Position numbers and translations under genes: made by a program
NCBI GenBank assembly: GCA_020341815.1
Contig: CP070837.1
Coordinates: 1,474,607 to 1,538,606 of the forward strand
From: Candidatus Omnitrophota bacterium
GTDB lineage: Bacteria; Omnitrophota; Gorgyraeia; JAFGHF01
Reading direction: 5' to 3'
DNA length: 64,000 bases
Shown here: positions 15,856 through 54,406 of the stretch, piece after piece
Numbering within the stretch: the stretch's first letter is position 1
Layout: the number at the start of each line of letters is the position of its first letter
Notes under the pieces: generated by a model
What the model was told of the DNA's origin: nothing
Database searches by the model: none
The model's input: the letters and a program-made list of their open reading frames with translations, nothing else

Positions 15856-15886
15856 CAATAAACCGTGATTATCAGGAGATAGAGAT

Positions 15887-16828
15887 ATGAAAGTATTGGT
15901 TACAGGAGGAAGTGGTTTTATAGGATCTCATGTGGTAGATAAGTTAAAGGATAAAGGCGTAGATGTAAGGGTTTTTGATGCGATGCCCACCTTTAGGAAG
16001 GATATCGAGTATTATCAGGGCAGCCTCTTAGACATGGACGCATTAGGCTTTGCCATGAATGGGGTAGATGCAGTGATGCATCTGGCTGCAATTGCTGACG
16101 TAAAGGACGTTTTTAACAGGCCTCATTATGCGGAGTCAATCAATGTAAGGGGCACTATTAATGTGCTTGAGGCAGCAAGAGCTGCAAAGCTAAGAAGGGT
16201 AGTCTACGGAAGCACTACCTGGGTCTACAGTGAAGCTGAAGGAGATTCTGTTGATGAAGCTACCCCTTTGCACGCCCCTTCCCATCTTTACACTGCGACA
16301 AAATTAGTCGGTGAATACTATTGCCGGACATACAGTGAGCTGTTTGGCCTAGACTATACTATTCTGAGATACGGAATACCTTATGGGCCAAGGGCAAGAG
16401 ATGAGGCCGTTATACCTATATTTGTGAGAAAGGCCCTAAGTGGCGAAGCGCTTACGATTGCCGGCGATGGCTCTCAATTCAGGAAATTTGTATTCGTGGA
16501 GGACCTTGCCGAAGGAAATATATTGGCTTTGCAGTCAATCGCAAGGAATAAGATATATAACTTGGATGGTGTAGAAAAAGTAACTATACGGCAAATTGCC
16601 GAGACAATCAAAAGGATTCTGGGAGACGTAAAGATAGAATATACGCCGGCTCGTCCGGGTGACTTCGCGGGAAAGGAAGTTTCCAGTGAGCTTGTTAAAA
16701 AAGAGCTTGGATGGGAGCCCAAGGTAGGCTTCGAGGAAGGGATACGACGATATTTAAAGTGGTATAGTGAAAGGGAAAAGACCCGCAAGGCAAATTGGGA
16801 AAAGTTGGACGATACATTAAAAAAGTAG
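15887..16828 (+). CDS. NAD-dependent nucleotide-sugar epimerase/dehydratase (extended SDR, UDP-glucose 4-epimerase-like)
   Basis: The Rossmann start is VLVTGGSGFIGSHVV and the catalytic motif is YTATKLVGE (YxxxK). A GGAG Shine-Dalgarno sequence lies upstream. Confidence 0.85.
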   Translation: MKVLVTGGSGFIGSHVVDKLKDKGVDVRVFDAMPTFRKDIEYYQGSLLDMDALGFAMNGVDAVMHLAAIADVKDVFNRPHYAESINVRGTINVLEAARAAKLRRVVYGSTTWVYSEAEGDSVDEATPLHAPSHLYTATKLVGEYYCRTYSELFGLDYTILRYGIPYGPRARDEAVIPIFVRKALSGEALTIAGDGSQFRKFVFVEDLAEGNILALQSIARNKIYNLDGVEKVTIRQIAETIKRILGDVKIEYTPARPGDFAGKEVSSELVKKELGWEPKVGFEEGIRRYLKWYSEREKTRKANWEKLDDTLKK

Positions 16829-16842
16829 GATTGATATCAAAT

Positions 16843-17508
16843 ATGAAGATTTTAGTGATAGCCCCGCATATGGATGATGAGGTCCTTGGTTGCGGAGGGG
16901 CCATAGCAAGGCATGTAATGAATGGAGATGAGCTTTTTATAAGTTTCATCGCGCATAGAATATATAATCATCAGTTTGATAAAGAAAAGGACGATCTCGA
17001 GAAGCAACATGCAGCTAAAGCAAAAGGGGTGCTTGGTTATAAGGAATCGGTCTTTTTTAATCTGAACGATGAGAGGCTGGATGCATGTATTCAGGATATC
17101 GTTATCCCTTTAGAAAAGTATATATTGAAGATAAGGCCCGATATCGTTTATTGCCCCTTTAGAGGGGATAATAATCAAGACCACAGGGCGGTGTTCGATG
17201 CGATAAGAGTTGCCGCCAGGCCCTCTGCAGCGGCCTTTATTAAGCGGATCCTTATGTATGAAGTTGCCTCTTCCACCGAGCAATCTCCGCCTATGTATGA
17301 AAACATATTTTTGCCGAATTTTTACGTAAATATTACAGAGCATATCGACAAAAAGGTAGAGGCTTTTAGATGCTACGAAACAGAAAAGAGGCCTTATCCC
17401 CATCCCCGCTGCGAAGAGGCATTGAGAGTTCTGGCCAAAAAAAGAGGGGTTGAAGCAGGTTTTGAATACGCAGAATCGTTTATGATTTTACGGGAGAAAT
17501 GGGATTAA
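16843..17508 (+). CDS. PIG-L/LmbE-family N-acetylglucosaminyl (sugar) deacetylase
   Basis: MKILVIAPHMDDEVLGCGG is the signature PIG-L N-terminal metal-binding motif (HxDD). I prefer the internal Met at 16843 over the ORF-track start at 16795, which overlaps the upstream gene. Confidence 0.8.
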   Translation: MKILVIAPHMDDEVLGCGGAIARHVMNGDELFISFIAHRIYNHQFDKEKDDLEKQHAAKAKGVLGYKESVFFNLNDERLDACIQDIVIPLEKYILKIRPDIVYCPFRGDNNQDHRAVFDAIRVAARPSAAAFIKRILMYEVASSTEQSPPMYENIFLPNFYVNITEHIDKKVEAFRCYETEKRPYPHPRCEEALRVLAKKRGVEAGFEYAESFMILREKWD

Positions 17509-17509
17509 A

Positions 17510-18154
17510 ATGATACTCGGCGTAATTCCAGCGCGAGGCGGCAGCAAAGAAATACCAAGAAAAAACATTAAGACGATTGCCGGCAAGCCTTTAATTGCAT
17601 GGACCATAGAAGCGGCTAAAAGGTCTACTTTGCTCGACAGGTATATTGTTTCTACGGAAGATGAAGAGATTGCCGAAATTTCAAGAAAATATGGAGCAAA
17701 GGTGTTGCCGCGGCCGCTTGAACTGGCAATGGATGAGGCGCTGACTCTTAATGTCCTTGAACATGCAGTTAAACAGATACCATGTGATACAGTCGTTCTT
17801 CTTCAGCCCACATCTCCTATAAGAAAGGCAGGGCTTATAGATGAATGCATAGGAGAGTTCTTGGATAATGGCTATGACTCCCTGGCCACCGGTTTTATGT
17901 GTAAATATATGGAATATGGCAAAGATGTGGAATGTAGCCAGGATGGCAAGGAATTAAGGCGACAGGATATTCAGGGATTTTTTTATGATGATGGCAATGT
18001 CTATGTGATAAGGGCTGATATCATAAGAAAAGGCGAGCGTTATGGCAAAAAGATTGGCAGAAAAATTATCAGTCGATGGGAGAATGTAGAGATAGATGAT
18101 GAATTTGATTTGTGGATGACAGAGAGGATTCTAAGAGAGAATAAGCATAAATGA
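17510..18154 (+). CDS. Acylneuraminate (CMP-nonulosonate) cytidylyltransferase, NeuA/CMP-Kdo-synthetase family
   Basis: MILGVIPARGGSKEIPRKNIKTIAGKPLIAWTIEAA is the canonical N-terminal CTP-binding motif of NeuA-type cytidylyltransferases. The protein is 214 aa. Confidence 0.85.
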   Translation: MILGVIPARGGSKEIPRKNIKTIAGKPLIAWTIEAAKRSTLLDRYIVSTEDEEIAEISRKYGAKVLPRPLELAMDEALTLNVLEHAVKQIPCDTVVLLQPTSPIRKAGLIDECIGEFLDNGYDSLATGFMCKYMEYGKDVECSQDGKELRRQDIQGFFYDDGNVYVIRADIIRKGERYGKKIGRKIISRWENVEIDDEFDLWMTERILRENKHK

Positions 18155-18199: not shown

Positions 18200-19474
18200 G
18201 TGAAAGATCAACTAATGAAAAACATCATTTCGGACTTATGGTTTGAAAAAAGAAATATCGTTTCCGAAGGATTCGATGATTCTTTAAGATATATTTCGAA
18301 GCTGCTTCCCATGTCAATAATTGAAATTCCGACCGGAACAGAATGCTGGAGCTGGACAGTTCCTCCTAAATGGTCGCTTAAGGAGGGCTGGATACGGAGA
18401 GGAAATAAAGTATATTTAGATTATGCAGACCATCCCCTGCATATTATGGCCTATTCAGAGCCGGTGAAGAAGAAAGTCCGGAAAGAAGAGCTTCTTTCTC
18501 ATATCGATACCTATTCGCACAGACCCAGTGCCATTCCCTTCGGGTACAGCTATTATGAGAAAAAATGGGGATTTTGCATTCAAAATAATAAATTGGCCGA
18601 CTTTAGAGAAGACAGCTATGAAATATGTATTGATAGTAAATTTAGCCCCGGGAGACTAAAGATTGGAGAGCTTGTTCTTCCCGGAAAACTCAAAGACGAG
18701 ATTGTTTTAATTGCCCATTTGTGCCATCCCTGTATGGCTAATGATAATTTATCGGGAGTGGCAGTATTAATTGCTACATTTCTGGAGCTGGCGAAGTCAG
18801 ATTCCCATAAATATACCTATCGCTTATTATTGGTTCCTGAAACTATCGGTTCAATAGCATATTTAAGCCGGAACGAACATTTAATCAAGAATATGAAATA
18901 CGGGATAGTCATTGATTGCGTAGGCCATAATGACATTTTATCCTTACAGCATTCTAAGCAGGCGGATACCGAATTAGACTATTGCGCAAGTTATGTCTTA
19001 AAAAACGAAGCGCTTATGTTTCGGGAAGGAGCGATAAATAAAGTTTGCGTCAGCGATGAAGTAGTATTTAATGGTCCGGGCGTGAATATCCCGACTATTT
19101 CTTTATCCCGGTTTAAATTCTGGGATGAAGGCGCCTGGCCGTATCCCGAATATCATTCAAGCGATGATACGCCGGATATTATTGTGCAGGAGAACTTAAG
19201 CAAAACAAAGGAAGTGATCCTTAAGATTCTGGAGATTATGGATAGCAATTTCGTGCCCAAAAGGACTTTTAAAGGCCCGCTTTTCTTGTCGAAATACGGC
19301 CTCTGGGTTGACTGGAGGAAAAATAGAAAATTAAATTCGGCTCTCAACGATGTAATGTTCTCTCTGGAAGGCAATAAAAGCGCACTGGAGATAGCAAAGG
19401 AATTGGACATCTCTTATACCGAGCTTTATGCCTGGCTTAATAAGTTAGAAAGACTAAACTTGATTAAAAAATAG
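18200..19474 (+). CDS. Aminopeptidase-like (M28-fold) domain protein of the DUF4910 type with C-terminal winged-helix; function unknown
   Basis: The metal-ligand-like segment HLCHPCMANDNLSGVAVLIATFLEL resembles the M28/DUF4910 region. The C-terminal roughly 60 aa (ALEIAKELDISYTELYAWLNKLERLNLI) looks like an HTH. A 45-bp gap precedes the gene. Confidence 0.4.
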   Translation: MKDQLMKNIISDLWFEKRNIVSEGFDDSLRYISKLLPMSIIEIPTGTECWSWTVPPKWSLKEGWIRRGNKVYLDYADHPLHIMAYSEPVKKKVRKEELLSHIDTYSHRPSAIPFGYSYYEKKWGFCIQNNKLADFREDSYEICIDSKFSPGRLKIGELVLPGKLKDEIVLIAHLCHPCMANDNLSGVAVLIATFLELAKSDSHKYTYRLLLVPETIGSIAYLSRNEHLIKNMKYGIVIDCVGHNDILSLQHSKQADTELDYCASYVLKNEALMFREGAINKVCVSDEVVFNGPGVNIPTISLSRFKFWDEGAWPYPEYHSSDDTPDIIVQENLSKTKEVILKILEIMDSNFVPKRTFKGPLFLSKYGLWVDWRKNRKLNSALNDVMFSLEGNKSALEIAKELDISYTELYAWLNKLERLNLIKK

Positions 19475-19492
19475 ATATTCTAAAGGAATAAA

Positions 19493-20299
19493 ATGCCGTT
19501 TCCAAAAGTTACTAAAAAAGATATAGTTGATAAGCTGGAGAAACTCAAGGTGCGAAGGGGAGATGATATTTATGTAGCATCTTTTACTCCCATACTTGGC
19601 AGGGAGCCGAATATCCTAGAGCACACAATAGATGCCTTGATTGAAATTGTAGGCGCTAGCGGCACAGTGGTAATGCCGACTTTTAATTGGGATTACTGCC
19701 GTGGTGAGATATTTAATCCAGAGACCACCCCTTCACAGGTCGGCGTACTTACGGAAATATTCAGAAAAAGGCCCGGGGTCTTAAGGAGCCTTACGCCGCC
19801 CTGGTGCACATTTGCAGCAATAGGCAAATACGCCAAAGATATAGTTAATGTTAGAGGAACTTCGCCTTTCGGAATAGACTCGATAGCCCAGTTTCTTTAT
19901 GAGATTAACGTAAAGTACGTCCTGTTGGGGTGCCCATATAAAGATGCCGTTATTCATACGCATTGGCTGGAAGAGAAGTATGAGGTGCCTTATCGATATT
20001 GGAAGCAATTTAAAGGCAAAGTTATGACAAACGGGAAAACAATTACCGATGTTTCATATATGTATGCCCGCAATTTAGAAATTAATGCAGATATCGATCC
20101 AGGCCATTTAACAGAATTATTTGATAGAACAGATAAAGTTAAAATAGAAAGGTTGGGTTTAGGCAAAGTCCGCAGCTTCAGAGCCAAAGATTATTGCGAT
20201 TTCATGATTCCCTATTTTGAAAAAGACAAATTGGCGATTTTAAAGCCCGAAATTAAAAAATACTTTGATGAATACGGCAAATACAAATTTGCAGAATAA
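19493..20299 (+). CDS. AAC(3)-family (aminoglycoside 3-N-acetyltransferase-like) acetyltransferase
   Basis: The pattern DIYVASFTPILG...ALIEIVGASGTVVMPTFNW matches the AAC(3) family core (L.VHSS...AL...G..GTL.MP). The protein is 268 aa. Confidence 0.5.
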   Translation: MPFPKVTKKDIVDKLEKLKVRRGDDIYVASFTPILGREPNILEHTIDALIEIVGASGTVVMPTFNWDYCRGEIFNPETTPSQVGVLTEIFRKRPGVLRSLTPPWCTFAAIGKYAKDIVNVRGTSPFGIDSIAQFLYEINVKYVLLGCPYKDAVIHTHWLEEKYEVPYRYWKQFKGKVMTNGKTITDVSYMYARNLEINADIDPGHLTELFDRTDKVKIERLGLGKVRSFRAKDYCDFMIPYFEKDKLAILKPEIKKYFDEYGKYKFAE

Positions 20300-20531
20300 A
20301 GTAAGCGAAGAAGAAATCAAACGTCTAATGGGAAGAATCTGGAAGATTAATCCTTCAGAAATTCCCTCAGAGATTGAATTTAGCTCTATACATAATTGGG
20401 ATTCGGTAGGGCATGTGGATTTGATGTTGGAATTGGAGAAGGAATTTAAGATAGATATTAATAACGAGACCCTTACTCAATTAACCAGTTTGAAGAAAAT
20501 TGTAGCATTTATTAACGGTTCGGACGAATGA
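20265..20531 (+). CDS. Acyl/peptidyl carrier protein (ACP/DltC-like)
   Basis: An 88-aa acidic protein. FSSIHNWDSVGHVDLMLELEKEF fits the phosphopantetheine-attachment region (DSx, then helix LELEKEF). The true start may be the TTG at 20289 or the ATG at 20325, because 20265 overlaps the upstream stop by 35 bp. Confidence 0.6.
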   Translation: MMNTANTNLQNKVSEEEIKRLMGRIWKINPSEIPSEIEFSSIHNWDSVGHVDLMLELEKEFKIDINNETLTQLTSLKKIVAFINGSDE

Positions 20532-22360
20532 ACACTTTAGATAGCGTTTTGATTAACGTACCTATAAGCAGCCCTCTGCATCCCCAGGCTAATTTGCCTT
20601 TTCTGAAAGGATTTTTAAAGCAGAACGGCTTTAAAACGAAGATTTATGATACCAATATTAAATTCTTGAATTGGTTCCTGGCAGAGCAAAGTTTCAATAT
20701 CAAAAATATGGAGTATATGAAAAATCCTGTCGAATTATTAAAGCTTTATAACGATATAGAGCATGTTTTATATGAAAAATGTAAATCTTACCGCAATTTA
20801 ACGATAGGTTTAAGAAATATAAGTCTGGATTACAGCCGCACTACCTTCGACAGCGTGCTTAAAGCTGTCGAAGATAAAAGCGCCAATCCTTTTATAGATT
20901 TTTATAATGAGTTCATCGATAAACATATTTTGCCGGATATCCCGAAAATAATCGGCATAGGAATAATTTTTCAGGATCAGATAATCGCCGCATTTACATT
21001 GGCGCATGTAATTAGAGAGAGGTTCCCTGAAGTTAAGATTGTATTAGGGGGGCAAATTATAACCCGCTGTTATGATACGCTGCTTGAAAGCGGGCTATTA
21101 AATCATCTATGGGACTATCTTGTATTATGGGATGGAGAGATGCCTTTGTTGGACATACACAGAAAAGTCATAAATAAAAGCCGGGTTCCCATGATAAATA
21201 TAATAGAAAAAAAAGAGAAAAACCTTATAGACCGCTCTAAATATGCCTATGATTTGAATAATTTGGAGTGTCCTGATTTTTCAGATTTGGATTTCAATGA
21301 ATATTTATTCCCGGAGATGTTATTTCCCCTGCAGACTGCCAGGGGATGTTACGGGTCTTGTGAATTTTGCGCTATCCCTGCGGGATCGAACAATTCATTC
21401 CGTCAGCGCAAGGCAGATAAAATAATCGATGATATATTAAGTATTCAAGAGCATACCTTAAAAACATACGGGAAGAAAGCCGTATATTTTAAGTTTATGG
21501 ATGATACCTCCTCGCCTAAGACTTTATTAGCGGTGGCCCGTGAAATAAAATCAAGAAGCATAGAGGCTCAATGGGAAACATTTGTTCGCCTGGAGAAAGA
21601 CTTCGAAGATGCCGATTTTATGGAGCAGCTTTATCAGGGGGGCTGCCGAAAGTTGATGTGGGGGCTGGAGACCAATAACCCCGATATTTTAAAAAATATG
21701 CGCAAAAAGATAAATGTTGCCTCTATAGATAAGATACTGCAGGCCGTATCCAAAGCAGGTATTATAAATTTTGTCTTTGTTCTGCTCGGATTTCCCGGTG
21801 AAACAAAAGAACAGCGCGATAAACTTGCGGAATATATCATCAATAATAAAGATATCCATGTTCTTACTATCGCTACTTTTGACGTGACTAAAAATTCGCC
21901 TATACAGAAGAATTTTGTTCATCCTAATGTTTGGGGTATAGAGATTGATAAGCCTGGAGGATTTGAGGTCAGGCTTCCTTATACGGTTAAAGGAGAAAAT
22001 TGGAAGAAAATGATAGTTGCCGAGGCCCATAGGATTTTAGTCAAAATCATAAAAGAAAGGCCGGATATAGGCTTTATGAGTCTGTTTCCCGATCAGGCAA
22101 GAGGGATCCTGGGGAATAAATATGGCAACGGTTGGGGGAGAGAATTTTTATCGGACTTTGGGCAGGACAATATCAGGCAGTTATTGTTATCCACGGAAAG
22201 CTATATAGATAGCTTTGCCAATCAAGAGGAGATTGAGTTGTCGCTGCTGCCCGAACCAATTAAACGCGAACATATGCGCACGAGCGAAGATATTAAGGCA
22301 GTTGCCGAGGCCATTTCAGCCCGCAAAAAATATGAAGAGAGAAGGATGAAGCAGGTATGA
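20528..22360 (+). CDS. B12-binding (class B) radical SAM enzyme
   Basis: The radical SAM motif is ARGCYGSCEFCAI (CxxxCxxC), preceded by a roughly 250-aa N-terminal Rossmann-like module. It overlaps the ACP gene with an ATGA junction. Confidence 0.7.
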   Translation: MNTLDSVLINVPISSPLHPQANLPFLKGFLKQNGFKTKIYDTNIKFLNWFLAEQSFNIKNMEYMKNPVELLKLYNDIEHVLYEKCKSYRNLTIGLRNISLDYSRTTFDSVLKAVEDKSANPFIDFYNEFIDKHILPDIPKIIGIGIIFQDQIIAAFTLAHVIRERFPEVKIVLGGQIITRCYDTLLESGLLNHLWDYLVLWDGEMPLLDIHRKVINKSRVPMINIIEKKEKNLIDRSKYAYDLNNLECPDFSDLDFNEYLFPEMLFPLQTARGCYGSCEFCAIPAGSNNSFRQRKADKIIDDILSIQEHTLKTYGKKAVYFKFMDDTSSPKTLLAVAREIKSRSIEAQWETFVRLEKDFEDADFMEQLYQGGCRKLMWGLETNNPDILKNMRKKINVASIDKILQAVSKAGIINFVFVLLGFPGETKEQRDKLAEYIINNKDIHVLTIATFDVTKNSPIQKNFVHPNVWGIEIDKPGGFEVRLPYTVKGENWKKMIVAEAHRILVKIIKERPDIGFMSLFPDQARGILGNKYGNGWGREFLSDFGQDNIRQLLLSTESYIDSFANQEEIELSLLPEPIKREHMRTSEDIKAVAEAISARKKYEERRMKQV

Positions 22361-23553
22361 TTTTGCGAGATTACTTGAAATTATTAGAAAAGTATATAGA
22401 TAATCCTCAGCAGAATGCCTGGTATGAAAGGCTGATGGAAAGGGTGGAAAAAGGATATTCAATCTTCCAGGGCTTGGATGAGGTAAGGCGCAAGCGCTTC
22501 TTGAGGCAATTTAACAACAGGATAAGGACCGAGGAATTAAAAGCCTGGTATAGTTCTCCCGAGGGAGAAGTCCTCTTTCAGGGGACGTCGATATCGTCAT
22601 TGATAGTTCCCTGCGAATTATCTGATCCGCTTTTTTTGAAAGGCATTGAAGATCTTGAGGATGCCGTTGCCGAGAATTATATCAGGCTTCATGACCGTTA
22701 TGCGGACCAGGTAAAAAATGCCATTATTGAAAATGTCGATACGTGGATAAAAGAAGGCCTTTATTATGGAATCGTGCTTTCTTCCAAGATAGTTTCTCAG
22801 GCCTTTCAGTTAAAAGTGCCTTATAAGGACGTGGTCTTTAAGGTCAGAGATTTTTTAGTAGACCCGCATGAAATTACTTCTTATCCCCTTGATGTCAGGA
22901 GAGAATATTTTCAAAAGGCAAAGGAAAAAATCGATTGTTTCAAAAATGTAGATCTGAGTCGTGAAGAGGTGGAGGCAAGCTTAGTCCTGGCCGATATCAG
23001 CAAACCCAGATTGGAGCAATTTAAGGATAATGTTATTTTGGCGCCCGTAAGGTGCAATGAAATAGCAACAATCTTTGCAAATCGCGTTAAAGAATTGATA
23101 ATCGCAAAGACAAGCGGACGAATTCAGCCAAAATCGCTTACAGTGGTTATCTTTGATACCGACACCCCATATATTTATCACCATCTTTTGGAATGTAACG
23201 GCAATTCTTTAGCCCCGATTTTGCCCGGCTTGACCCTTATGGGGGCCAGCGGAACGATAGACGCTTTCAGGTGGCTCTATGCCTATAGGGTAAGCCTGGT
23301 CGGGCAGAAGATAATGAAAAGTTCGTTATATTCCGAGGTTCACAGGAAGTTTATTCCTTTTGTCTATTTTGGCGTATTGGTGCCGCGCGATGCCGAAATC
23401 TTATTAGAATCCGAGAACCTTAGCAGATTAAGATACCGCGGAGGCATAGATCCGGCTTTGGAATTCTGCTATCTTATACCGACTATCAATGAATATCTTG
23501 AGACCGAACGACAGGTTGATATTTATAAAAAACTTAAATTAAAAGCGAAATAG
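22357..23553 (+). CDS. Hypothetical protein (398 aa), no recognisable motif
   Basis: It is a long ORF in the operon frame with an ATGA junction and codon usage matching its neighbours. I recognise no family motif. Confidence 0.3.
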   Translation: MILRDYLKLLEKYIDNPQQNAWYERLMERVEKGYSIFQGLDEVRRKRFLRQFNNRIRTEELKAWYSSPEGEVLFQGTSISSLIVPCELSDPLFLKGIEDLEDAVAENYIRLHDRYADQVKNAIIENVDTWIKEGLYYGIVLSSKIVSQAFQLKVPYKDVVFKVRDFLVDPHEITSYPLDVRREYFQKAKEKIDCFKNVDLSREEVEASLVLADISKPRLEQFKDNVILAPVRCNEIATIFANRVKELIIAKTSGRIQPKSLTVVIFDTDTPYIYHHLLECNGNSLAPILPGLTLMGASGTIDAFRWLYAYRVSLVGQKIMKSSLYSEVHRKFIPFVYFGVLVPRDAEILLESENLSRLRYRGGIDPALEFCYLIPTINEYLETERQVDIYKKLKLKAK

Positions 23554-23557
23554 AGAT

Positions 23558-24295
23558 ATGTGTACCATAGGTTATCATAAAGCCCTGAATTTAATCTTTA
23601 AGAACAGAGACAAGAGTGAAATAACAACCGAGGAGATGGTAGCCGAAGATAACTATATTGCCTTCAGGACAAAGGGCGCCGATTATTTTAGCTGCGGCGT
23701 TAATAGATACGAATGCGGCTTTGTTAGCGCTGCTGTTAACACGCCCCAATGGACTGACCTGATCTATAAGGGTAAAGTGCAGCAGGCAAATCAGCAGCTT
23801 AAAGTTGAGAAGAGGGGATTGAGCAATCCCATGATTCTGGTTTCTGAAATGTTATCTCGAGCCAGAAAGATAAAGGCGATTATCGATAAAATAGAATCTT
23901 CCGAGTTAAGCTGGCAGGGCTATAATATATTATTAGTGGATAGCGGACAAGCATCGCTCATCGAGACATATAATTCCGATATCCGGATAAGGGAATTGCG
24001 CCCGAGGGAGGTAATTACCAATTATTTCTCACTTCTTGATTTTGGGCCTAAAGATTACTCTGAATATCCGAGTTCTTTCAGACGCCATGAATACGGAAAT
24101 AATAATATTAAATCCGCAGCATCTGTTAATGATCTGTTTGAGTTATTGAAGCCTGCGGATGAAAATAAAAGAAAAAAGATATGGCGCAGAGGAGCGTTCA
24201 AGACTATTTCTTCAAGCATAATCGATTTAAAAAGGCGTTTAATATACTATTCGAAAGATATAAATGAAGATTACTCAATTTTCCGAATGCATTAA
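23558..24295 (+). CDS. Hypothetical protein; N-terminal Met-Cys-Thr hints at an Ntn-type (N-terminal cysteine nucleophile) hydrolase/acyltransferase
   Basis: It begins MCTIGY. Choloylglycine-hydrolase/PVA-type Ntn enzymes begin MCT..., but at 245 aa it is shorter than classical members. The call is speculative. Confidence 0.25.
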   Translation: MCTIGYHKALNLIFKNRDKSEITTEEMVAEDNYIAFRTKGADYFSCGVNRYECGFVSAAVNTPQWTDLIYKGKVQQANQQLKVEKRGLSNPMILVSEMLSRARKIKAIIDKIESSELSWQGYNILLVDSGQASLIETYNSDIRIRELRPREVITNYFSLLDFGPKDYSEYPSSFRRHEYGNNNIKSAASVNDLFELLKPADENKRKKIWRRGAFKTISSSIIDLKRRLIYYSKDINEDYSIFRMH

Positions 24296-24316
24296 GAAAG
24301 GACGGTTTTTAAAATT

Positions 24317-25063
24317 ATGAAAGAAAAATATGATACTAGCCTGGAAATGTCAAGGTATATTGACCTTGAATTGTATCACGAAGTGGAAAAGACCCATCCC
24401 TTTTATGTGGAAATGATTGATGAGATTCTCAGTCAAATTAATAAATTTTCTCAGAACAAAGAGGGAAGGCTGAAAATCCTTGAATTCGGTGCCGGAACGG
24501 GAATCTTAACCAAAGAATTGCTTGGCATCCCTTCGCTCCAAGTCGATGCCCTGGAAATCGACCAAGAATGCTGCAAATCGCTGAATAAGCATATTAGCAG
24601 TAATGGGTGCAACATTATTCAGGGCGATATAGTAACCTATTGTAAAGAAAACTATTATGATTTAATTGTATCAAGCTTTGCCCACGACCATATTTCCCAT
24701 GAAAAAAGTACCAAATTAGCTGAAAATATTAAAAGAAATCTAAAAAAAGGAGGCGTCTATATCATGGGCGGCGAAATACTGCCTCCTTTTTCTACAAAGG
24801 AACAACAGCGGGAAGCCTTGTATAAATATCACGGCTATATAATAAATAAAGCGCTAAAGGATGAAAACTTTAGAGTTGCTCAGATTGAAATTAATGCCTT
24901 GAAATCGGGATTAGAATATATAGGGGATTTCAAAAGGCATGTATCCATGTTCGAGGAAGAGATATCCTCGGCTGCCCTCAAAATAAGATTCAGGAAAAAA
25001 ATAGGGCCGCATGAAGTGGATGATGTCGGCGGCGTTTATGTATATGTGATTGAAGCCGCATAA
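24317..25063 (+). CDS. Class I SAM-dependent methyltransferase
   Basis: Motif I is ILEFGAGTGILTKELL (GxGxG), followed by an acidic residue at the end of the next strand (VDALEID). Confidence 0.65.
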   Translation: MKEKYDTSLEMSRYIDLELYHEVEKTHPFYVEMIDEILSQINKFSQNKEGRLKILEFGAGTGILTKELLGIPSLQVDALEIDQECCKSLNKHISSNGCNIIQGDIVTYCKENYYDLIVSSFAHDHISHEKSTKLAENIKRNLKKGGVYIMGGEILPPFSTKEQQREALYKYHGYIINKALKDENFRVAQIEINALKSGLEYIGDFKRHVSMFEEEISSAALKIRFRKKIGPHEVDDVGGVYVYVIEAA

Positions 25064-25093
25064 TATCGCAACTGAACATTTGGCAGGTTTGTA

Positions 25094-26563
25094 ATGAAAG
25101 AGTTCTACGGGAAATTACATAATATAATCAAAAATTCTAAGGCAGTGGCCTATACCTATTACGGACAAACGCATTCATATACTGAATTGTATAGGGATAT
25201 GTTAAAAGTCAATTCAGTCTTGCGGAATTATCGAAATGAGCGGGTTGCTCTGTTTAGCTCCAAGCATTTTCATGCTTATAGCGCGATATTTTCTATAATT
25301 CTTTCCGGGAATGTATGGATACCTTTTACTCCGGAGGTGCCTGAGGGTCGTAATCTTGATATCATGAAGCTGGCCGAGCCCAAACTTATAATTACAGACC
25401 GCCGGCTGCCTGTTTCCTTAGCTGAGTACGCCAAAAATAAGGGAATAGCGGTGGTCGAGCTTGAGAAAGTCATGGCCGAAAATAATATAGCCGAATTTGC
25501 CTTAGGGCATTTCAACAAGGATGATATTGCCTACATTATGTTTACATCCGGCTCTACCGGCATTCCCAAAGGCGTTCCCATGACGCATGAAAATTATATT
25601 AATTTTATTAATAACGCTATGAATATCTTGCCATTTAAGCAAAACGAGGTGTTTTCCGATTTCCATGATTTTGCTTTTGATATTTCCATCTTTTATCTGT
25701 TCTGCTGTATTCTGACAGAGAGCGCCTTCGCCCCTATTATAAAAACTGAAGATACAATTATCCCCATAAATCACATTATTAAAAACAATGTTACAGTCTG
25801 GTCAAGCGTGCCTTCGGTTATATCGAGGTTAAAAAGGTTTAAAAGGGATGACCTTATACAAACGCCGGTTAGAATTATGTTTTTGTGCGGCGAGCCTTTC
25901 AGATTGGATGTCTTGGAATATTGTTTTAAAAACTTACGGCTTGAAAATGTATATGATTTCTACGGATTAACTGAGACCGGAGTCGAAAACTTTTATCATA
26001 AGTGTCATCCGGATGATTTAGTTGAGTATCGGGATATAGGTTTTGTGCCTATAGGCAAGCCCTTGAAAGGCAACCAAATCCGCATAACCGAGGAAAAGGA
26101 ATTAATGCTCAGCGGCTGCCAGGTTACTCCGGGTTATCTGGGCGGTATATCCTCGGAAAAATTTGAAATAATCGATGGAATAAGATGGTATCATACCGGA
26201 GATATCGTCGTTAAATATAAAGACGTTTACTTTTGCAAGGGCCGCCTGGATTCGCAGGTTAAACTCAGTGGATACAGGGTGGAGCTTATGGATATAGAGA
26301 CTTATATTCGCAGAATCGATGGGATTGACGAGGCGGTTTGTTTTATTGAAAGCATAGATGAAAAGATGCTGCTTATTGCCGCTGTAAAAGCAAGAAATAA
26401 AATCGGCCTTAGGGATATACAGGATAATCTGAAATTTCATCTGCCAAATTACATGATACCCAGAGACATTTTATATTTGGATAATGTACCGTTAAACAAG
26501 AACGGAAAGATAAATAGAAAAAAAGTTCAGCAGATGTACGTAAAAAAGGCCCTAATCCCTTAA
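25094..26563 (+). CDS. Stand-alone adenylation enzyme (AMP-dependent synthetase/ligase; DltA-like carrier-protein ligase)
   Basis: FTSGSTGIPKGV is the AMP-binding core motif A3. WYHTGD matches A7 and GRLDSQVKLSGYRVEL matches A8. The 489-aa length matches DltA-type enzymes. Confidence 0.85.
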   Translation: MKEFYGKLHNIIKNSKAVAYTYYGQTHSYTELYRDMLKVNSVLRNYRNERVALFSSKHFHAYSAIFSIILSGNVWIPFTPEVPEGRNLDIMKLAEPKLIITDRRLPVSLAEYAKNKGIAVVELEKVMAENNIAEFALGHFNKDDIAYIMFTSGSTGIPKGVPMTHENYINFINNAMNILPFKQNEVFSDFHDFAFDISIFYLFCCILTESAFAPIIKTEDTIIPINHIIKNNVTVWSSVPSVISRLKRFKRDDLIQTPVRIMFLCGEPFRLDVLEYCFKNLRLENVYDFYGLTETGVENFYHKCHPDDLVEYRDIGFVPIGKPLKGNQIRITEEKELMLSGCQVTPGYLGGISSEKFEIIDGIRWYHTGDIVVKYKDVYFCKGRLDSQVKLSGYRVELMDIETYIRRIDGIDEAVCFIESIDEKMLLIAAVKARNKIGLRDIQDNLKFHLPNYMIPRDILYLDNVPLNKNGKINRKKVQQMYVKKALIP

Positions 26564-26593: not shown

Positions 26594-27292
26594 GTGAAAA
26601 CTATTGCAATTCAACAACCTGAGCATCTACCATGGGTTGGTTTTTTTGATAAAATGGGGAAATGCGATGAATATATCTTTTTAGACAACGTTCAGTTCAA
26701 GAAAAGATATTTCGAAAATAGAAATAAGATACGGACAAGAGAAGGATGGCAGTGGATTACTGTTCCCGTGAAGACAAAAGGAAGATATTTTCAAAGAATT
26801 AATGAGGTAGATATTGAAAATACGGAAAATTGGCGTAGAAACTATTTAAAATCGATAGAATTTAATTATCAGAAATCTAAATATTTCAACCCATACTTTA
26901 AAAACTTAAATGAAATTATTAATCGAAAATATGCCCTCTTGACGGAATTGAATATTGGGTTAATAGAGTGGATCCGCGAATGTCTTAATATAAAGACACC
27001 AATAAAAATGGTTTCTCAAATAAGGAATTATACGGAACGTGGCAGTGAACTGATTTTAGCAATATGCAAGGATATGAATGCCGATAAATATATATCAGGC
27101 CCTGATGGTAGGAATTATTTAGATTTAGACAGATTTAAGAGAGAAAACATAAAGCTGGTTTTCCATGATTTTAAGCACCCAGAGTATTCTCAAGCTTACA
27201 GCCCCTTTGTTCCTTTTATGTCAACAATTGATTTTTTGTTTAATGCGGGTCGAAGTGATAAATATATGGATAAAGAGACTTTAATATGTTAA
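26594..27292 (+). CDS. WbqC-like family protein (O-antigen-locus-associated, function unknown)
   Basis: It has a GTG start. The N-terminus IAIQQPEHLPWVGFFDKM matches the hallmark WbqC-like start (IAIMQPTYLPWLGYF...). The protein is 232 aa. Confidence 0.6.
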   Translation: MKTIAIQQPEHLPWVGFFDKMGKCDEYIFLDNVQFKKRYFENRNKIRTREGWQWITVPVKTKGRYFQRINEVDIENTENWRRNYLKSIEFNYQKSKYFNPYFKNLNEIINRKYALLTELNIGLIEWIRECLNIKTPIKMVSQIRNYTERGSELILAICKDMNADKYISGPDGRNYLDLDRFKRENIKLVFHDFKHPEYSQAYSPFVPFMSTIDFLFNAGRSDKYMDKETLIC

Positions 27293-28815
27293 GAGTTCTA
27301 TTAATTGGGCCTTATAAAGGCCGAGACAATTCAGGAGATTCATTTCTTGCGCCTCCTTTCGGGCTATACAGGATGAAATTCTATATCGAGAAGAAACTGG
27401 AAGACGTTTTTATCGATATATTAGATCCTAACATCGATAATTATAGGGACGTAGAAGGGGTATATGATGTTGTCGGTTTTAGTCCACTGCATTTGACTTT
27501 TGAAAATGATTTATTATTATTTGGCTATTTTAAATCGAAGTTTCGTGATTCTCTTTTTATTGCTGGCGGAATTGAGGTTTCCTCTATAGGAAAAGAAGTT
27601 TTTGATTATGCCCCATTTGACATAGCTGTTTTAGGCGAAGGGGAAGAGACTTTATTAAAAATTTTAAAAGCAATTCTAAAAGGAAAGAAGCAGTTTAATG
27701 GCATCAAATCAATATATCAGAGGAGACAGGGCCGGGTATATTTTAATGGATACGGGAAGCAGTTAGGATTGAGCCACTTTAAAGAAATCTATGAAGCATA
27801 CGAATTTATCAATATTCCGTATGATCGATATTGGAAACACAATGCACAATTTTATAAAGAACCTAATTGGACAGAAATCAGAACAATCAGGGGCATATTT
27901 TCTAATTTTTGCCCTTATCGTTGTAAATTTTGCGCTTCAACTAATTTTATCTCCTATTCTTATAGCGGAAAGCTTTCTGCCGGGAGCCGTTTCTATATTT
28001 TGCCCGTGAAAGATGTTATACGGTTTATATTAAAAATCACTGATGCATGGAAAGATGTCGAAACAATTATATTTGATGATGATAATCTTTCTCTGGATTT
28101 CCAATATCTCAAAAAGCTATGTTTAGAAATAATACAGCTAAAGGAAAAAGATAAGTTAAGGAAGAATTTGAGTTTTATTTGTCAAGGACGACCAGATGTT
28201 TTTGCTAGATCCAAGAAGAAAATCCTTAATTTGATGAAAAATGCCGGATTCCGGATGATTATGTATGGAGTAGAATCATTCTCTGATAGAGTATCAGCGT
28301 ACTTGGGAAAGAGAATTACCCGACAACAGGCAATGCAGACAATTGATGCAACAGTAGATGCAGGAATTGTTCCTCTCATCTATATTATTCTTTTTCCTCC
28401 GTGTATTTTAAAGGAAGATTTAATTAAGACAGTCGATTTATGTGTAAAATATCTATTAAAGAATTTGGAAATAAGCACTACATTGTTGATAATGGATATT
28501 CCCGGCTCCGAATTTTATTATGATACCTCTTTAAGACGCATTATTAAGAAATATTCTATAGCTAAGGGGATATCTATTCAGAAATCAGACTATATATGGC
28601 CTTCGGATGATGAACTGTTTGAATTGGGACGGGATATACATGAAAATTATTCTAACTATGAAGAAAATTTTAAGCAAAATTACGGCATACAGCATGTGCC
28701 CAGCCGCGTTTATTCTTTTATTGTTTTTGATGCTATATATCAGAAATTTGGATTAGAAGATAAACGCAAATATCTTCATAGAACATTACAGGATGTAATT
28801 AAAAACTATCAATAA
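27286..28815 (+). CDS. B12-binding-like radical SAM enzyme
   Basis: The radical SAM motif is FCPYRCKFCAS (CxxxCxxC) at about residue 210. The N-terminus has a Rossmann-like module (VLLIGPY...VAVLGEGEETLLKIL). Confidence 0.65.
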   Translation: MLRVLLIGPYKGRDNSGDSFLAPPFGLYRMKFYIEKKLEDVFIDILDPNIDNYRDVEGVYDVVGFSPLHLTFENDLLLFGYFKSKFRDSLFIAGGIEVSSIGKEVFDYAPFDIAVLGEGEETLLKILKAILKGKKQFNGIKSIYQRRQGRVYFNGYGKQLGLSHFKEIYEAYEFINIPYDRYWKHNAQFYKEPNWTEIRTIRGIFSNFCPYRCKFCASTNFISYSYSGKLSAGSRFYILPVKDVIRFILKITDAWKDVETIIFDDDNLSLDFQYLKKLCLEIIQLKEKDKLRKNLSFICQGRPDVFARSKKKILNLMKNAGFRMIMYGVESFSDRVSAYLGKRITRQQAMQTIDATVDAGIVPLIYIILFPPCILKEDLIKTVDLCVKYLLKNLEISTTLLIMDIPGSEFYYDTSLRRIIKKYSIAKGISIQKSDYIWPSDDELFELGRDIHENYSNYEENFKQNYGIQHVPSRVYSFIVFDAIYQKFGLEDKRKYLHRTLQDVIKNYQ

Positions 28816-29579
28816 TGAGGATAAGTTTACCTTTATCTCAATATTTTGAACAAGTAAAAACGGATTTATGGCCATTTATAAGTGCTGTTGTTGTCCGTGA
28901 AGAAAAAAACCTGAATAGAAAGTTCAGAAATAAGGATATATTAGTTCATGCTAACGGCTTTATCAATGATGAATTTGATGAATTAATTAACAATCGTAGA
29001 TTTTTAGAAAAATTGAACTCTTGCGCAAGTCTATTATCATTTGATTTAGGACCATCGTGTCATAAAATCGATTATTCCGAACACGGATATATTGCCAAAG
29101 GCCCGGTTTTAACAGAAAGTCAAATTCTAAGAATTGCAGATAGAAAAATTAGCAATATCCGTAAGTTTTTTAAAGGCATTATATCGGTGGAGAATCTTGA
29201 TTATCATGCATTGGGCGCTTACGAAGTTGTATGCAACCCCGATTTTATAAATAAGTTTGTAGAAAAATTTAATATTTGCTTAACGTTGGATATTGGGCAT
29301 GTGGAAGTAACTTGTAGCAATTTTTCAATAGATCCGTATGATTATTTAGAAAAGTTACCATTATCCAAGGTTGTGGAGATTCATCTGGCGCGTTCTGTGG
29401 GAAGCAGAGATTCACATATGCTGCCTACAGAAAAACAGTATAGATTGTTAGAATTTATTCTGCAAAGAGTTCATGCCCGTTATATTGTCCTCGAATATTA
29501 TTTTAAACCCGAAGGGATTATCCAGGGAAATAGGGAATTAATGCAATTTCTTAAAGATAGAGGCTTATATGAAAATTGA
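28815..29579 (+). CDS. Hypothetical protein, possible xylose-isomerase-like TIM-barrel (sugar-phosphate isomerase/epimerase) fold
   Basis: EIHLARSVGSRDSHMLPTEKQYRLLEFI resembles the metal-binding HL..D...DxH.P motif of AP-endonuclease/xylose-isomerase-like TIM barrels. The evidence is weak. It is joined to the upstream gene by a TAATG junction. Confidence 0.3.
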   Translation: MRISLPLSQYFEQVKTDLWPFISAVVVREEKNLNRKFRNKDILVHANGFINDEFDELINNRRFLEKLNSCASLLSFDLGPSCHKIDYSEHGYIAKGPVLTESQILRIADRKISNIRKFFKGIISVENLDYHALGAYEVVCNPDFINKFVEKFNICLTLDIGHVEVTCSNFSIDPYDYLEKLPLSKVVEIHLARSVGSRDSHMLPTEKQYRLLEFILQRVHARYIVLEYYFKPEGIIQGNRELMQFLKDRGLYEN

Positions 29580-30633
29580 AAAGGAACAAATCTTTCTTTC
29601 AAATATTTACCAAAAATTGTTATTCCATAAAGGGCGAGGCAAAGGCCATCTTTTGAGTTATCTTAAGAATCGAATTCAATGGTATTGGTATCCTCCCCTT
29701 GGAATTGTTTCTCATTTTCCCCCTCATATTGATATAGAGATTTCGACACATTGCAATATGCATTGCCCAATGTGCCCTAGAAGGACTGAAAAGTTTAAGC
29801 AGCTCATAAAAGATCAATTTATGGAAAAGAGAATATTTGAAAAAATAATAGAAGAATGCGCTAAACACAAATTATTTTCAATCCGCTTGAGTCTAAGAGG
29901 CGAATCCTTTATGCATCCTCAAATTTTCGATTTTATTGAATTGATAAAGAAGACTGGAATAAAAGAGGTGGCCTCATTAACAAATGGTTTAGCTTTGACA
30001 CCGGGGAAATTTGAAAGGTTGGTTCAGCTTAAGTTTGACTGGTTGACTATATCCGTCGATGGTTTAGGTTCCACTTATGAATCAATAAGGAAGCCGGCTA
30101 AATTCAAGGAAGCTTTTGAAAAAATTAAAATTTATCACCAGATTAAAAAACGCTATAATTCTTCAAAACCAATGGTTAAAATTCAAGCTGTTTGGTCGGC
30201 GATTAAAGACAACCCTGAAGAATTTTATAGAACTTTTTCACCTTATGTCGATTTAATAGCTTCCAATCCGCTTATTGACTTTTCGCGTGCAAATAAACAT
30301 ATCGGGTACGACGAGAACTTTCAATGTCCATATCTATATCAGAGGATGGTTATCGCAGCCAACGGCTCGGTGCTTTTGTGTTCCTGCGATGATTACGGAG
30401 AATATATTATCGGTGACGTAAGGAATGAGTCTATCTATGAGATTTGGCATGGCCGGAAGATGAACGCAGCGCGAAAGTGGTTTAAAAAGGGAAACAGGGT
30501 CTGGCGGGAAAATGCGCCTTGCAAATATTGCTTTTATCCCAGAAAAAAAGAAAAAGCGGAAGATGCTCTGATTGAAGGGCGCAAGGTAGCGGTAGAGAGA
30601 TATGTTAACCGGCGCGAAGACGTACTTGTATGA
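29569..30633 (+). CDS. Radical SAM enzyme with SPASM-type auxiliary Fe-S domain (paralog of 49815..50822)
   Basis: The radical SAM motif is ISTHCNMHCPMCPRR (CxxxCxxC). The SPASM-type cysteines are CPYLYQRMVIAANGSVLLCSCDD...CKYCFY. It shares multiple collinear blocks with ORF 49815. Confidence 0.8.
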   Translation: MKIEKEQIFLSNIYQKLLFHKGRGKGHLLSYLKNRIQWYWYPPLGIVSHFPPHIDIEISTHCNMHCPMCPRRTEKFKQLIKDQFMEKRIFEKIIEECAKHKLFSIRLSLRGESFMHPQIFDFIELIKKTGIKEVASLTNGLALTPGKFERLVQLKFDWLTISVDGLGSTYESIRKPAKFKEAFEKIKIYHQIKKRYNSSKPMVKIQAVWSAIKDNPEEFYRTFSPYVDLIASNPLIDFSRANKHIGYDENFQCPYLYQRMVIAANGSVLLCSCDDYGEYIIGDVRNESIYEIWHGRKMNAARKWFKKGNRVWRENAPCKYCFYPRKKEKAEDALIEGRKVAVERYVNRREDVLV

Positions 30634-30667: not shown

Positions 30668-31711
30668 ATGAGAGATAAAGTTAGCATTAATAACAGACAT
30701 ATAGGAAAAGGCCACCCGTGTTATATTATTTTAGAAGCAGGAGTAAACTTTGATGATATAATAGAAGCCAAGAAATTGATTGATTCCGGAGTTCGCCTGG
30801 GGGCGGACTGCATTAAGTTTCAAACATTCCATGCCCAGACGACAGTAATTGAAGGAACAAGCTTAAAAGACGGCAGAGGAATTATAGACCAGCATAAGGA
30901 GTTTACAGAAAGCCAGGAGAAGCAGACAGAGGACTTTCAAAAGAAGTTATTTGCATATGCCAAGAGCAAAGATATAACGGCCTTTTCCACCCCCAGCCAC
31001 TTTAACGATGTTGATTTGCTGGAAAGGATTGCCGATCCCCCAGCCTATAAACTTGGCTCTGACGATTTAACTAATATCCCCTTGCTAAAATACATAGCCC
31101 GGTTGAAGAAGCCAATGATAATTTCATCAGGAGTTTCTTATCTGTCAGAGATAGACACTGCCATCAGGGCGATAAGAGAAGAGGGTAATGACAATATTGT
31201 CTTATTGCACTGTATTTCACAATATCCGGCAAGACCTGAAGATATGAATTTGAGGGCGATGCAGACATTAATCAATACTTTTGATTTGCCTGTTGGTTTG
31301 AGCGACCATACAATGACAAGCTCGATTTCTCTTGCTGCCGTTGCCCTGGGCGCCTGCGTTATCGAAAGACATTTTACTTTAAATAGAGAGTCTCCGGGGC
31401 CGGATAATTTTTTCTCCATGCTGCCTGAAGAGATGGCATTGATTATTAAGGGTATCCGCGAGATTGAGACGGCCTTGGGCTCGCCCTATAAAAAGATTGC
31501 CGGGGCCGAAAAAGACATGCGTCCGGTATTCAAGAAATCAATATACGCCATACGTAATATTAGAGAAGGAGAAATGATTACAGAAAAAAATGTAGATATC
31601 TTAAGGCCGGCAGGAGGGATAGAGCCGAGATTATTGCAACATATTTACGGAATGAGAGTAAGAAGGGATATGTCGGCCGGCGAGCCGCTTACCTGGGAGT
31701 GTTTTAAGTAA
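30668..31711 (+). CDS. N-acetylneuraminate/nonulosonate synthase family (NeuB/PseI/LegI-like), copy 1
   Basis: It shows the NeuB TIM-barrel pattern (CYIILEAGVNFDD...ADCIKFQTF...LSDHT), and the C-terminal SAF domain is present (IREGEMITEKNVDILRP). Confidence 0.9.
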   Translation: MRDKVSINNRHIGKGHPCYIILEAGVNFDDIIEAKKLIDSGVRLGADCIKFQTFHAQTTVIEGTSLKDGRGIIDQHKEFTESQEKQTEDFQKKLFAYAKSKDITAFSTPSHFNDVDLLERIADPPAYKLGSDDLTNIPLLKYIARLKKPMIISSGVSYLSEIDTAIRAIREEGNDNIVLLHCISQYPARPEDMNLRAMQTLINTFDLPVGLSDHTMTSSISLAAVALGACVIERHFTLNRESPGPDNFFSMLPEEMALIIKGIREIETALGSPYKKIAGAEKDMRPVFKKSIYAIRNIREGEMITEKNVDILRPAGGIEPRLLQHIYGMRVRRDMSAGEPLTWECFK

Positions 31712-35278: not shown

Positions 35279-35285
35279 AAAGCTT

Positions 35286-39253: not shown

Positions 39254-39265
39254 GATAAATTAGAA

Positions 39266-40908: not shown

Positions 40909-40939
40909 GATGGATTAGTGGGCTAAATAAGGAGATGTA

Positions 40940-42103: not shown

Positions 42104-42115
42104 TTAACAGAGAAA

Positions 42116-51583: not shown

Positions 51584-51589
51584 AGAGGG

Positions 51590-52573: not shown

Positions 52574-52585
52574 GCAGGGAATTAG

Positions 52586-54405: not shown

Positions 54406-54406
54406 G

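Follow-up and report, generated by a model that had tools for sequence, protein, structure and literature searches.

Bacteria have counterparts of sialic acids in the nonulosonic acids, whose N-acyl decorations influence surface antigenicity as well as recognition by phages and the immune system; the genes for most of the unusual decorations are unknown. A stand-alone adenylating enzyme working with a carrier protein is known to decorate other glycans, as with the D-alanyl carrier protein ligase DltA and its carrier DltC in teichoic-acid D-alanylation, in the tetronate pathway of Vibrio cholerae and in the butirosin pathway. In V. cholerae O1 (RfbK-N), an acyl carrier protein (ACP), an acyl-activating enzyme and a reductase/transferase build 3-deoxy-L-glycero-tetronate on perosamine, and in the butirosin pathway (BtrI/J/K/O/V/H/G) the AHBA (4-amino-2-hydroxybutyrate) chain is derived from an amino acid and built on a dedicated carrier. 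Aminoacylated nonulosonic acids are themselves chemically known. Legionaminic acid (Leg) with an N-methyl-glutamyl group, that is, an N-methyl-aminoacyl nonulosonic acid, occurs in Clostridium botulinum (PMC2674064), and the N-aminoacyl form alanyl-Leg is reported from Vibrio vulnificus (PMC7371886). Here we describe six genes at positions 20265-26563 of a 64-kb stretch of DNA from a Candidatus Omnitrophota metagenome-assembled genome (MAG), contig CP070837.1; the whole of this stretch is called the window below. We propose, at a confidence that stands about midway between belief and doubt, that they form the heart of a cassette spread by horizontal transfer, through which a legionaminic-type 5,7-diamino nonulosonic acid receives a methylated N-acyl substituent derived from an amino acid.

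The six genes encode, in order, a carrier protein, a radical S-adenosylmethionine (SAM) enzyme, a 398-aa protein, an N-terminal nucleophile (Ntn) type cysteine enzyme, a class I SAM methyltransferase and an adenylating enzyme. An earlier interpretation from the nucleotide letters, the sequence-only reading, had marked them as a module, an interpretation that our analysis bears out in part, and each of the six open reading frames (ORFs) is present where it had been placed, on the forward strand. They are packed as an operon, with junctions of -35 to +30 nt and 4-nt overlaps between the carrier and radical SAM genes and between the radical SAM and 398-aa genes, within a run of about 55 genes that all point in one direction across 63 kb and are separated by intergenic gaps of at most 45 nt. 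The 398-aa protein is 100% identical to a hypothetical protein from a Candidatus Omnitrophota MAG. It has 172 homologues, all annotated as hypothetical and all more than 50% identical, in Omnitrophota, Nitrospirota, Desulfobacterota, Planctomycetota, Lentisphaerota, Bdellovibrionota, Alphaproteobacteria and Gammaproteobacteria. We fetched 27 loci with flanks of varying length for examination, of which about 20 are non-redundant. In every locus examined the radical SAM gene lies directly upstream of the 398-aa gene, and the genes for the Ntn enzyme, the methyltransferase, the adenylating enzyme and a small carrier accompany this pair wherever the flank suffices, with the clear exception of L018; neither an adenylating-enzyme gene nor a carrier gene was found in L015, where the upstream flank ends at the contig end. 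The cassette occurs in at least eight phyla and is conserved at about 50% identity; its recurrence in about 20 non-redundant loci of many phyla shows that the grouping is not due to chance. Amino-sugar or nonulosonic-acid genes, mostly Leg-type markers, lie in the flanks of 17 of the roughly 20 loci, and NeuB in 10. The cassette is also present in the cultured Magnetospirillum moscoviense BB-1 (L021). As a separate observation, many of the cassette genomes are magnetotactic or come from magnetotactic surveys, including Magnetovibrio, M. moscoviense BB-1 and the Nitrospirae/Oligoflexia bins nDJH6/nN3 (L008, L016, L018, L021 and L002/L010), which could reflect sampling bias or a shared microoxic sediment ecology.

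The adenylating enzyme (25094-26563, forward strand; 489 aa) is a stand-alone amino-acid adenylating enzyme of the DltA/nonribosomal peptide synthetase (NRPS) type (PF00501, 154 bits). The motifs A3, A4 (FDxS, with Asp235), A5, A7 and A8 and the A10 lysine lie at residues 150, 195, 288, 366, 383 and 470-472, which bears out the textbook motifs and DltA-like character that had been claimed for it. The best NCBIfam models are those of DltA, at 231 and 230 bits against cut-offs of 476 and 560, and AA-adenyl-dom, at 222 bits and also below its cut-off; the enzyme falls outside the DltA equivalog, and D-Ala specificity is not supported. Its nearest solved relatives are NRPS adenylation domains (to 1e-59) and DltA (7vhv, 4.6e-44), with which it groups, and not with the fatty-acyl-CoA ligases that the sequence-only reading had named as the contrary outcome; acyl-CoA ligase models score far lower on it than amino-acid adenylation models. 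We also carried out the specificity-pocket analysis suggested in that reading. The ten positions, mapped by motif with GrsA numbering, give the code DIFSFCFVEK, which is nearly invariant in 16 orthologues of different phyla (the variants are I/L at position 2 and one F/W) and in which Asp235 and Lys517 are kept. The closest code is the D-Ala code of DltA. In Bacillus subtilis DltA, for which we quote residues from deposited PDB sequences, the same positions read DLMSMCTVAK, so that five of the ten are shared (Asp235, Ser278, Cys301, Val330 and Lys517), or six if Ile/Leu 236 is counted as conservative, and four differ (Phe239, Phe299, Phe322 and Glu331). Cys301 corresponds to DltA Cys269, which we take to be the enantioselectivity residue. 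The DltA-like code, in a pocket narrowed by three Phe residues, suggests that one specific small alpha-amino acid of Ala or Ser size is activated, and on sequence grounds the substrate is likely a small amino acid and not a fatty acid.

The carrier protein (20265-20531, forward strand) is of the ACP or peptidyl carrier type, with Ser47 in a WDSxxH motif. By its PF00550 match (27.1 bits against a cut-off of 20.8), alongside generic ACP models in NCBIfam, it classes as a phosphopantetheine carrier, and the serine is kept in all 16 aligned homologues from related loci, as a functional ACP would have it. It had been described as an 88-aa ACP with a DSV site; the site stands (WDS47V), but the length is probably 87 aa, the start probably being the ATG at 20268, one codon past the TTG that had been used. 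Family scans of the ORFs found no phosphopantetheinyl transferase gene in the window.

The second gene (20528-22360, forward strand) encodes a cobalamin-type (class B) radical SAM enzyme (PF04055, 57.7 bits) with the CxxxCxxC core at C274, C278 and C281. Residues 7-437 align to positions 2-427 of the class-B methylase model TIGR03975, a RiPP (a peptide made ribosomally, then modified post-translationally) C-methyltransferase model which, with PhpK, is the best in NCBIfam, both scoring far below their cut-offs. The relatives in PDB are remote (AprD4 and TsrM, the closest solved structures at E 1e-6 to 3e-3). For the class-B assignment of the sequence-only reading there are thus the radical SAM core and an alignment of about 430 residues to a class-B methylase model, with a match to the B12-binding domain that scores below threshold. 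The enzyme is a probable C-methyltransferase. A SPASM/twitch radical SAM gene, related to those at 29569-30633 or 7062-8156 of the window, lies beside the cassette in at least ten loci (L002, L003, L006, L008, L009, L013, L015, L017, L023 and L024) and may be a further, loosely linked component.

A possible Ntn-type acyltransferase or hydrolase had been seen in the 245-aa protein that begins MCT- (23558-24295, forward strand), and the fold confirms this: the protein has the alpha-beta-beta-alpha Ntn fold with an N-terminal cysteine nucleophile, Cys2, and isopenicillin-N acyltransferase (IAT) is the top match. By sequence the family matches are weak (C45_proenzyme 35 bits against a cut-off of 85; AAT 18 against 23), and there is no sequence match in PDB. 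The Met-Cys start is invariant among homologues, and because the ORF begins with Met-Cys the enzyme has no pro-segment. This C45/IAT-like core member may be an acyltransferase or an amidohydrolase. The next gene (24317-25063, forward strand) encodes the class I SAM methyltransferase (Methyltransf_25/11/23), whose relatives in NCBIfam and PDB are generic, so that it is not assignable as N-, O- or C-type; it is often the C-terminal half of a C45-methyltransferase fusion. The two genes are fused in eight loci, with the Ntn part always first, an order that keeps the cysteine N-terminal.

The 398-aa protein (22357-23553, forward strand) had been described as having no motifs. No Pfam or NCBIfam family matches it, but it has the fold of the amide ligase CofE, preceded by about 125 aa of additional helical sequence at the N-terminus. 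In the CofE reaction GTP activates a carboxylate, which an amine then attacks (PMC10861534). From the fold and this chemistry we infer that this core member is a nucleoside triphosphate (NTP)-dependent amide ligase, and a second amide-forming step would then be missing from the earlier scheme. The family is new and, judged by an exhaustive hidden Markov model (HMM) search of 1.84 billion representatives, small and isolated: the search found no bridge to CofE and about nine distant full-length relatives without Pfam domains. One such relative, at 131 bits (L028, 3212-4393), lies among genes for a TrmB regulator, a metallophosphoesterase, an AAA_33 kinase and a Macro domain protein, a wholly different neighbourhood which suggests that the CofE-fold family also has other, non-glycan roles. 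No F420 biosynthetic genes (CofC/CofD/FbiC) are present in the window or in any related locus.

The surrounding genes bear out the nonulosonate context suggested earlier. Upstream of the cassette (13163-18154, forward strand) the host sugar pathway includes a DegT aminotransferase, a B12-radical SAM enzyme, a LegB/RmlB-like 4,6-dehydratase, a PIG-L de-N-acetylase and a CMP-transferase, as annotated by Pfam on the identical contig and by NCBIfam. Downstream follow a WbqC protein, a second B12-radical SAM enzyme, an MNIO enzyme, a SPASM radical SAM enzyme and a NeuB-family nonulosonate synthase (30668-31711, forward strand; PF03102, 256 bits; NeuB 310 bits and PseI 296 bits, both below cut-off), and a canonical Leg gene set lies at 37165-43201. 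A NeuB-type synthase, CMP-transferase, 4,6-dehydratase, aminotransferase and N-acyltransferase are thus found together, which marks a nonulosonic-acid locus, and the related loci carry these markers too. The window has three NeuB paralogues (30668-31711, 39904-40908 and 43220-44242) and three CMP-transferase paralogues (17510-18154, 45524-46327 and 49071-49814), which, with the complete Leg set, suggests that two or three distinct nonulosonic acids are probably produced here. Given Leptospira-O-antigen-type proteins (LIC12162-like and LIC13510-like), together with glycosyltransferases and an ABC exporter, the likely destination is a surface polysaccharide rather than flagellin.

The analysis establishes which genes belong together and how they are conserved, as well as the folds, motifs and gene fusion. 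In the pathway that we propose, the adenylating enzyme would activate one small alpha-amino acid of Ala or Ser size with ATP and load it, in thioester linkage, onto the phosphopantetheine at Ser47 of the carrier, a step with sequence support. The radical SAM enzyme would methylate an unactivated carbon of the loaded unit, while a heteroatom, probably the free amine, would be the target of the class I methyltransferase. The Ntn enzyme, acting like IAT, would take the acyl group from the pantetheine thioester onto Cys2 and pass it to a sugar amine, as its fold and its fusion suggest; the amine may be freed by PIG-L or by a Cj1295-like de-N-acylase, and the fused methyltransferase would act on the product of the Ntn enzyme. 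The fold of the CofE-like protein suggests that it may form a second amide through an NTP-activated carboxylate, extending or capping the side chain, after which the sugar would be condensed by NeuB, CMP-activated and polymerised into the surface polysaccharide. The identity of the substrate, the order of steps, the timing of methylation (on the carrier or after transfer) and the choice of transferase are what we infer beyond the genes themselves. In its fullest form the proposal is of a biosynthetic route not known before, in which an amino acid is loaded NRPS-style on a free-standing carrier, C- and N-methylated, and joined to a legionaminic-type sugar by two distinct kinds of amide formation, an IAT-like Cys-Ntn swap and a CofE-type NTP-dependent ligation, into a methylated aminoacyl or dipeptidyl nonulosonic acid, chemically unseen, which would make the 398-aa family the first CofE-fold enzyme outside F420 biosynthesis, with an obligate cobalamin radical SAM partner. 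This fuller form we put forward tentatively, and we lean towards doubting it.

Several points weigh against the proposed pathway. To our knowledge DIFSFCFVEK matches no described code, and the amino acid cannot be named from it. The B12-domain match of the radical SAM enzyme (PF02310) is 19.7 bits against a cut-off of 32.1. The link of the 398-aa protein to CofE is at the level of fold only: PF01996 matches none of 42 family members in Pfam searches even at E up to 10, the family HMM finds only a chance match in PDB, an hhalign comparison with a single CofE sequence is not significant, and one with a CofE profile of authentic sequences aligns residues 209-271 with CofE 105-156 at E 0.004 and a probability of 8%. 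That weak alignment recovers a segment predicted beforehand from conserved motifs, and places the invariant D213-x-S215 and D267-T268 on G-I-D109-A-S-N and D150-T151 of CofE; D109, D150 and T151 of Af-CofE are presumably metal ligands. One locus (L018) has the radical SAM, CofE-like, adenylating-enzyme and carrier genes, but no C45 or methyltransferase gene within 10 kb. Methylation on the carrier, as supposed in the sequence-only reading, is plausible, with the free amino acid or the transferred group as alternative substrates, and no product is known from any cassette-bearing organism. Finally, an AAC(3)-like or PglD-like acyltransferase beside the carrier could be the real transferase, the Ntn enzyme having another role.

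This last point leads to the best of the rival explanations, which keeps the pathway and divides the work differently. The AAC(3)-like enzyme, or elsewhere a PglD-like one, would transfer the aminoacyl group from the carrier, and the Ntn enzyme would be an amidohydrolase that removes an N-acetyl or protecting acyl group, as BtrG does in the butirosin pathway, or proofreads the carrier, the fused methyltransferase methylating the exposed amine. The AAC(3)-like N-acyltransferase gene (19493-20299, forward strand; PF02522, 109 bits; AAC(3) and FrbF in PDB), an accessory member and candidate acyl-carrier-dependent transferase, overlaps the start of the carrier gene in the window and, in each of the 6-7 loci that have it (window, L004, L006, L014, L018 and L022), directly adjoins that gene, but such genes are missing from more than half of the loci. 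PglD-like acyltransferase genes are near the cassette in others and flank the carrier in L002, L003 and L024, although their presence is non-specific, being expected as LegH in any legionaminic pathway. The Ntn protein's structural relatives are mostly hydrolases (NAAA, ceramidase, BSH and PVA) and one homologue is labelled carcinine hydrolase/IAT family in a source; the single best structural match, however, is an acyltransferase with a pantetheine thioester donor. The same neighbourhood of DUF2172, AAC(3) and ACP genes in Campylobacter jejuni speaks for this division of labour, which we regard as rather unlikely while giving it serious weight. The sequence-only reading had drawn the module boundary at the carrier gene, overlooking the overlapping AAC(3)-like gene; this gene and the Cj1295-like gene upstream belong to the module too. 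The latter (18200-19474, forward strand) encodes an accessory DUF4910/DUF2172/M28 aminopeptidase-like protein (PF16254, 250 bits; PF09940, 93 bits) and travels with the AAC(3)-like gene as a pair (18200-20299 in the window; L004, L006, L014, L018 and L022), possibly an 'N-acyl swap' unit in its own right. In C. jejuni, pseudaminic acid in its N5 di-O-methylglyceroyl form depends on Cj1295 (PMC3068675).

A second alternative, which we consider distinctly improbable, is that the cassette does two separate jobs: the adenylating enzyme, carrier and transferase would aminoacylate the sugar, and the radical SAM and CofE-like enzymes, with or without the methyltransferase, would act on the sugar skeleton, for example by C-methylation of the nonulosonate chain and amidation of its C1 carboxylate. 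CofE-type enzymes need a free carboxylate, which a nonulosonate has, the many other cobalamin radical SAM enzymes of the window presumably act on sugars, and in Rhodospirillales loci sugar-pathway genes lie between a methyltransferase-radical SAM-CofE-like block and a C45-adenylating enzyme-carrier block. Against this, the methyltransferase is fused to the Ntn enzyme in the eight fusion loci and lies beside the radical SAM gene in others, which links one block to the other, and the adenylating enzyme and carrier occur with the radical SAM/CofE-like pair in essentially every locus with enough flank.

That the genes form a small non-ribosomal or RiPP-like natural-product pathway, situated within glycan loci and unrelated to the sugar, seems to us very improbable. 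The best family models of the radical SAM enzyme are RiPP C-methyltransferases and an MNIO enzyme is encoded 2 kb downstream, but the cassette has no conserved association with the MNIO gene, no gap in the window exceeds 45 nt so as to hold a precursor-peptide gene, no condensation domain or thioesterase was found, and amino-sugar/nonulosonic-acid genes surround the cassette across phyla. Dlt-like D-alanylation of an already completed extracellular polymer, or a lipid pathway with a fatty-acyl-AMP/CoA ligase, is barely credible, since for all that DltA is the best NCBIfam match and shares Cys301, no MBOAT (DltB) or DltD was found among the window ORFs of at least 150 aa scanned against Pfam, Asp235 is present and the acyl-CoA ligase models fall far below those for amino-acid adenylation. 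The readings as a fatty-acyl ligase, as Dlt-type polymer alanylation and as a RiPP cluster were accordingly rejected.

A further candidate for the transferase in the sequence-only reading was the WbqC-family protein encoded next to the cassette (26594-27292, forward strand; PF08889, 250 bits), which has no solved relative by sequence in PDB. It occurs in two of the roughly 20 loci (the window and L013), so it is not the transferase of the cassette, and we place it outside the conserved genes as a locus-specific member. The MNIO enzyme (28815-29579, forward strand; MbnB/TglH/ChrH family) belongs to a family that normally modifies peptides or RiPPs and stands here in a glycan operon; its gene is overlapped on either side by those of a B12-radical SAM and a SPASM-radical SAM enzyme. 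No precursor-peptide gene is evident around this trio (27286-30633), which is not conserved with the cassette in the related loci compared. Altogether nine radical SAM genes, six of the cobalamin and three of the SPASM type, begin at positions 3437, 7062, 14134, 20528, 27286, 29569, 31713, 49815 and 60739 of the window, a density of radical chemistry that is exceptional for a 64-kb polysaccharide operon. The last of them (60739-62976, forward strand) is one 745-aa ORF with B12-binding, radical SAM and family-2 glycosyltransferase domains, an unusual coupling of a methylase or radical enzyme with a glycosyltransferase. The regions 33425-37145 and 55960-57966 (forward strand) hold two paralogues in tandem, each of about 618 aa and with a weak relationship to the LIC12162 transferase family, and a 668-aa member of the LIC13510 surface-carbohydrate family. 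At 50831-55069 (forward strand) genes for a short-chain dehydrogenase/reductase, two methyltransferases, a D-2-hydroxyacid dehydrogenase and a HAD phosphatase follow one another, resembling a unit for a methylated hydroxy-acid (glycerate-type) substituent such as the di-O-methylglyceroyl group on C. jejuni pseudaminic acid.

The analysis defines a portable six-gene cassette and offers testable functions for a CofE-fold ligase and an Ntn acyltransferase-methyltransferase fusion that were earlier annotated vaguely or not at all. As M. moscoviense BB-1 is cultured, the product can be determined there. If the proposal is true, a branch based on a carrier protein and radical SAM chemistry is added to the chemistry of sialic-acid-like sugars, and the CofE fold reaches beyond cofactor F420.

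We found no account of the six-gene cassette in the searchable literature, and the gene sets in papers on the Shewanella sfm cluster and on the C. botulinum and Clostridium flagellar glycosylation islands (FGI) differ from it. In C. jejuni the flagellin glycosylation island resembles the window in having the DUF2172 protein Cj1295, the adjacent N-acetyltransferase Cj1296/7 and the ACP genes Cj1299 and Cj1308 in a nonulosonic-acid locus, and by this analogy the Cj1295/Cj1296-7/acpP2 neighbourhood may serve as a partial genetic precedent for the trio of Cj1295-like, AAC(3)-like and carrier genes. The acyl group of C. jejuni is a hydroxy acid, whereas that proposed here is an amino acid. Cj1307 is presumably an 'amino-acid activating enzyme', and we know of no radical SAM/CofE-like/C45 set in that island. 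The radical SAM enzyme shares the CxxxCxxC core with the cobalamin-dependent methylases TokK/ThnK, PoyC, TsrM and PhpK, and its N-terminal Rossmann-type region aligns with class-B methylase models, but it scores far below every curated family cut-off. From isopenicillin-N acyltransferase (PenDE, C45) the Ntn enzyme differs in its low identity (only 19%), in lacking a pro-peptide and autoproteolysis, Cys2 being exposed by removal of Met as in BSH and PVA, in its frequent fusion to a methyltransferase, and in that its donor would be an acyl-carrier protein. The 398-aa protein, compared with the F420:gamma-glutamyl ligase CofE/FbiB N-domain, escapes PF01996 and all other sequence models and is encoded away from any F420 context, coupled to a radical SAM gene; we know of no precedent for an obligatory CofE-like partner of a radical SAM enzyme. 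Like DltA/DltC, the cassette has a stand-alone NRPS-type adenylating enzyme of about 490 aa and a small carrier, with five specificity positions in common, but it lacks DltB and DltD, scores under the DltA equivalog cut-off and stands in a context of cytoplasmic nonulosonic-acid biosynthesis. Judged by its sequences it appears to work like the Dlt and PF01996 families while being a member of neither. The likeness to V. cholerae RfbK-N is conceptual only. The butirosin pathway resembles the proposed scheme in its use of an amide ligase on the tethered unit and in the transfer of the finished chain to an amino-sugar amine, with an amidase step included; it differs in its families (the ATP-grasp BtrJ, BtrH and BtrG), in its aminoglycoside acceptor and in having no radical SAM enzyme or methyltransferase. 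Set beside these systems, what is new here is a CofE-fold partner of a radical SAM enzyme together with an Ntn-methyltransferase fusion, within nonulosonic-acid loci.

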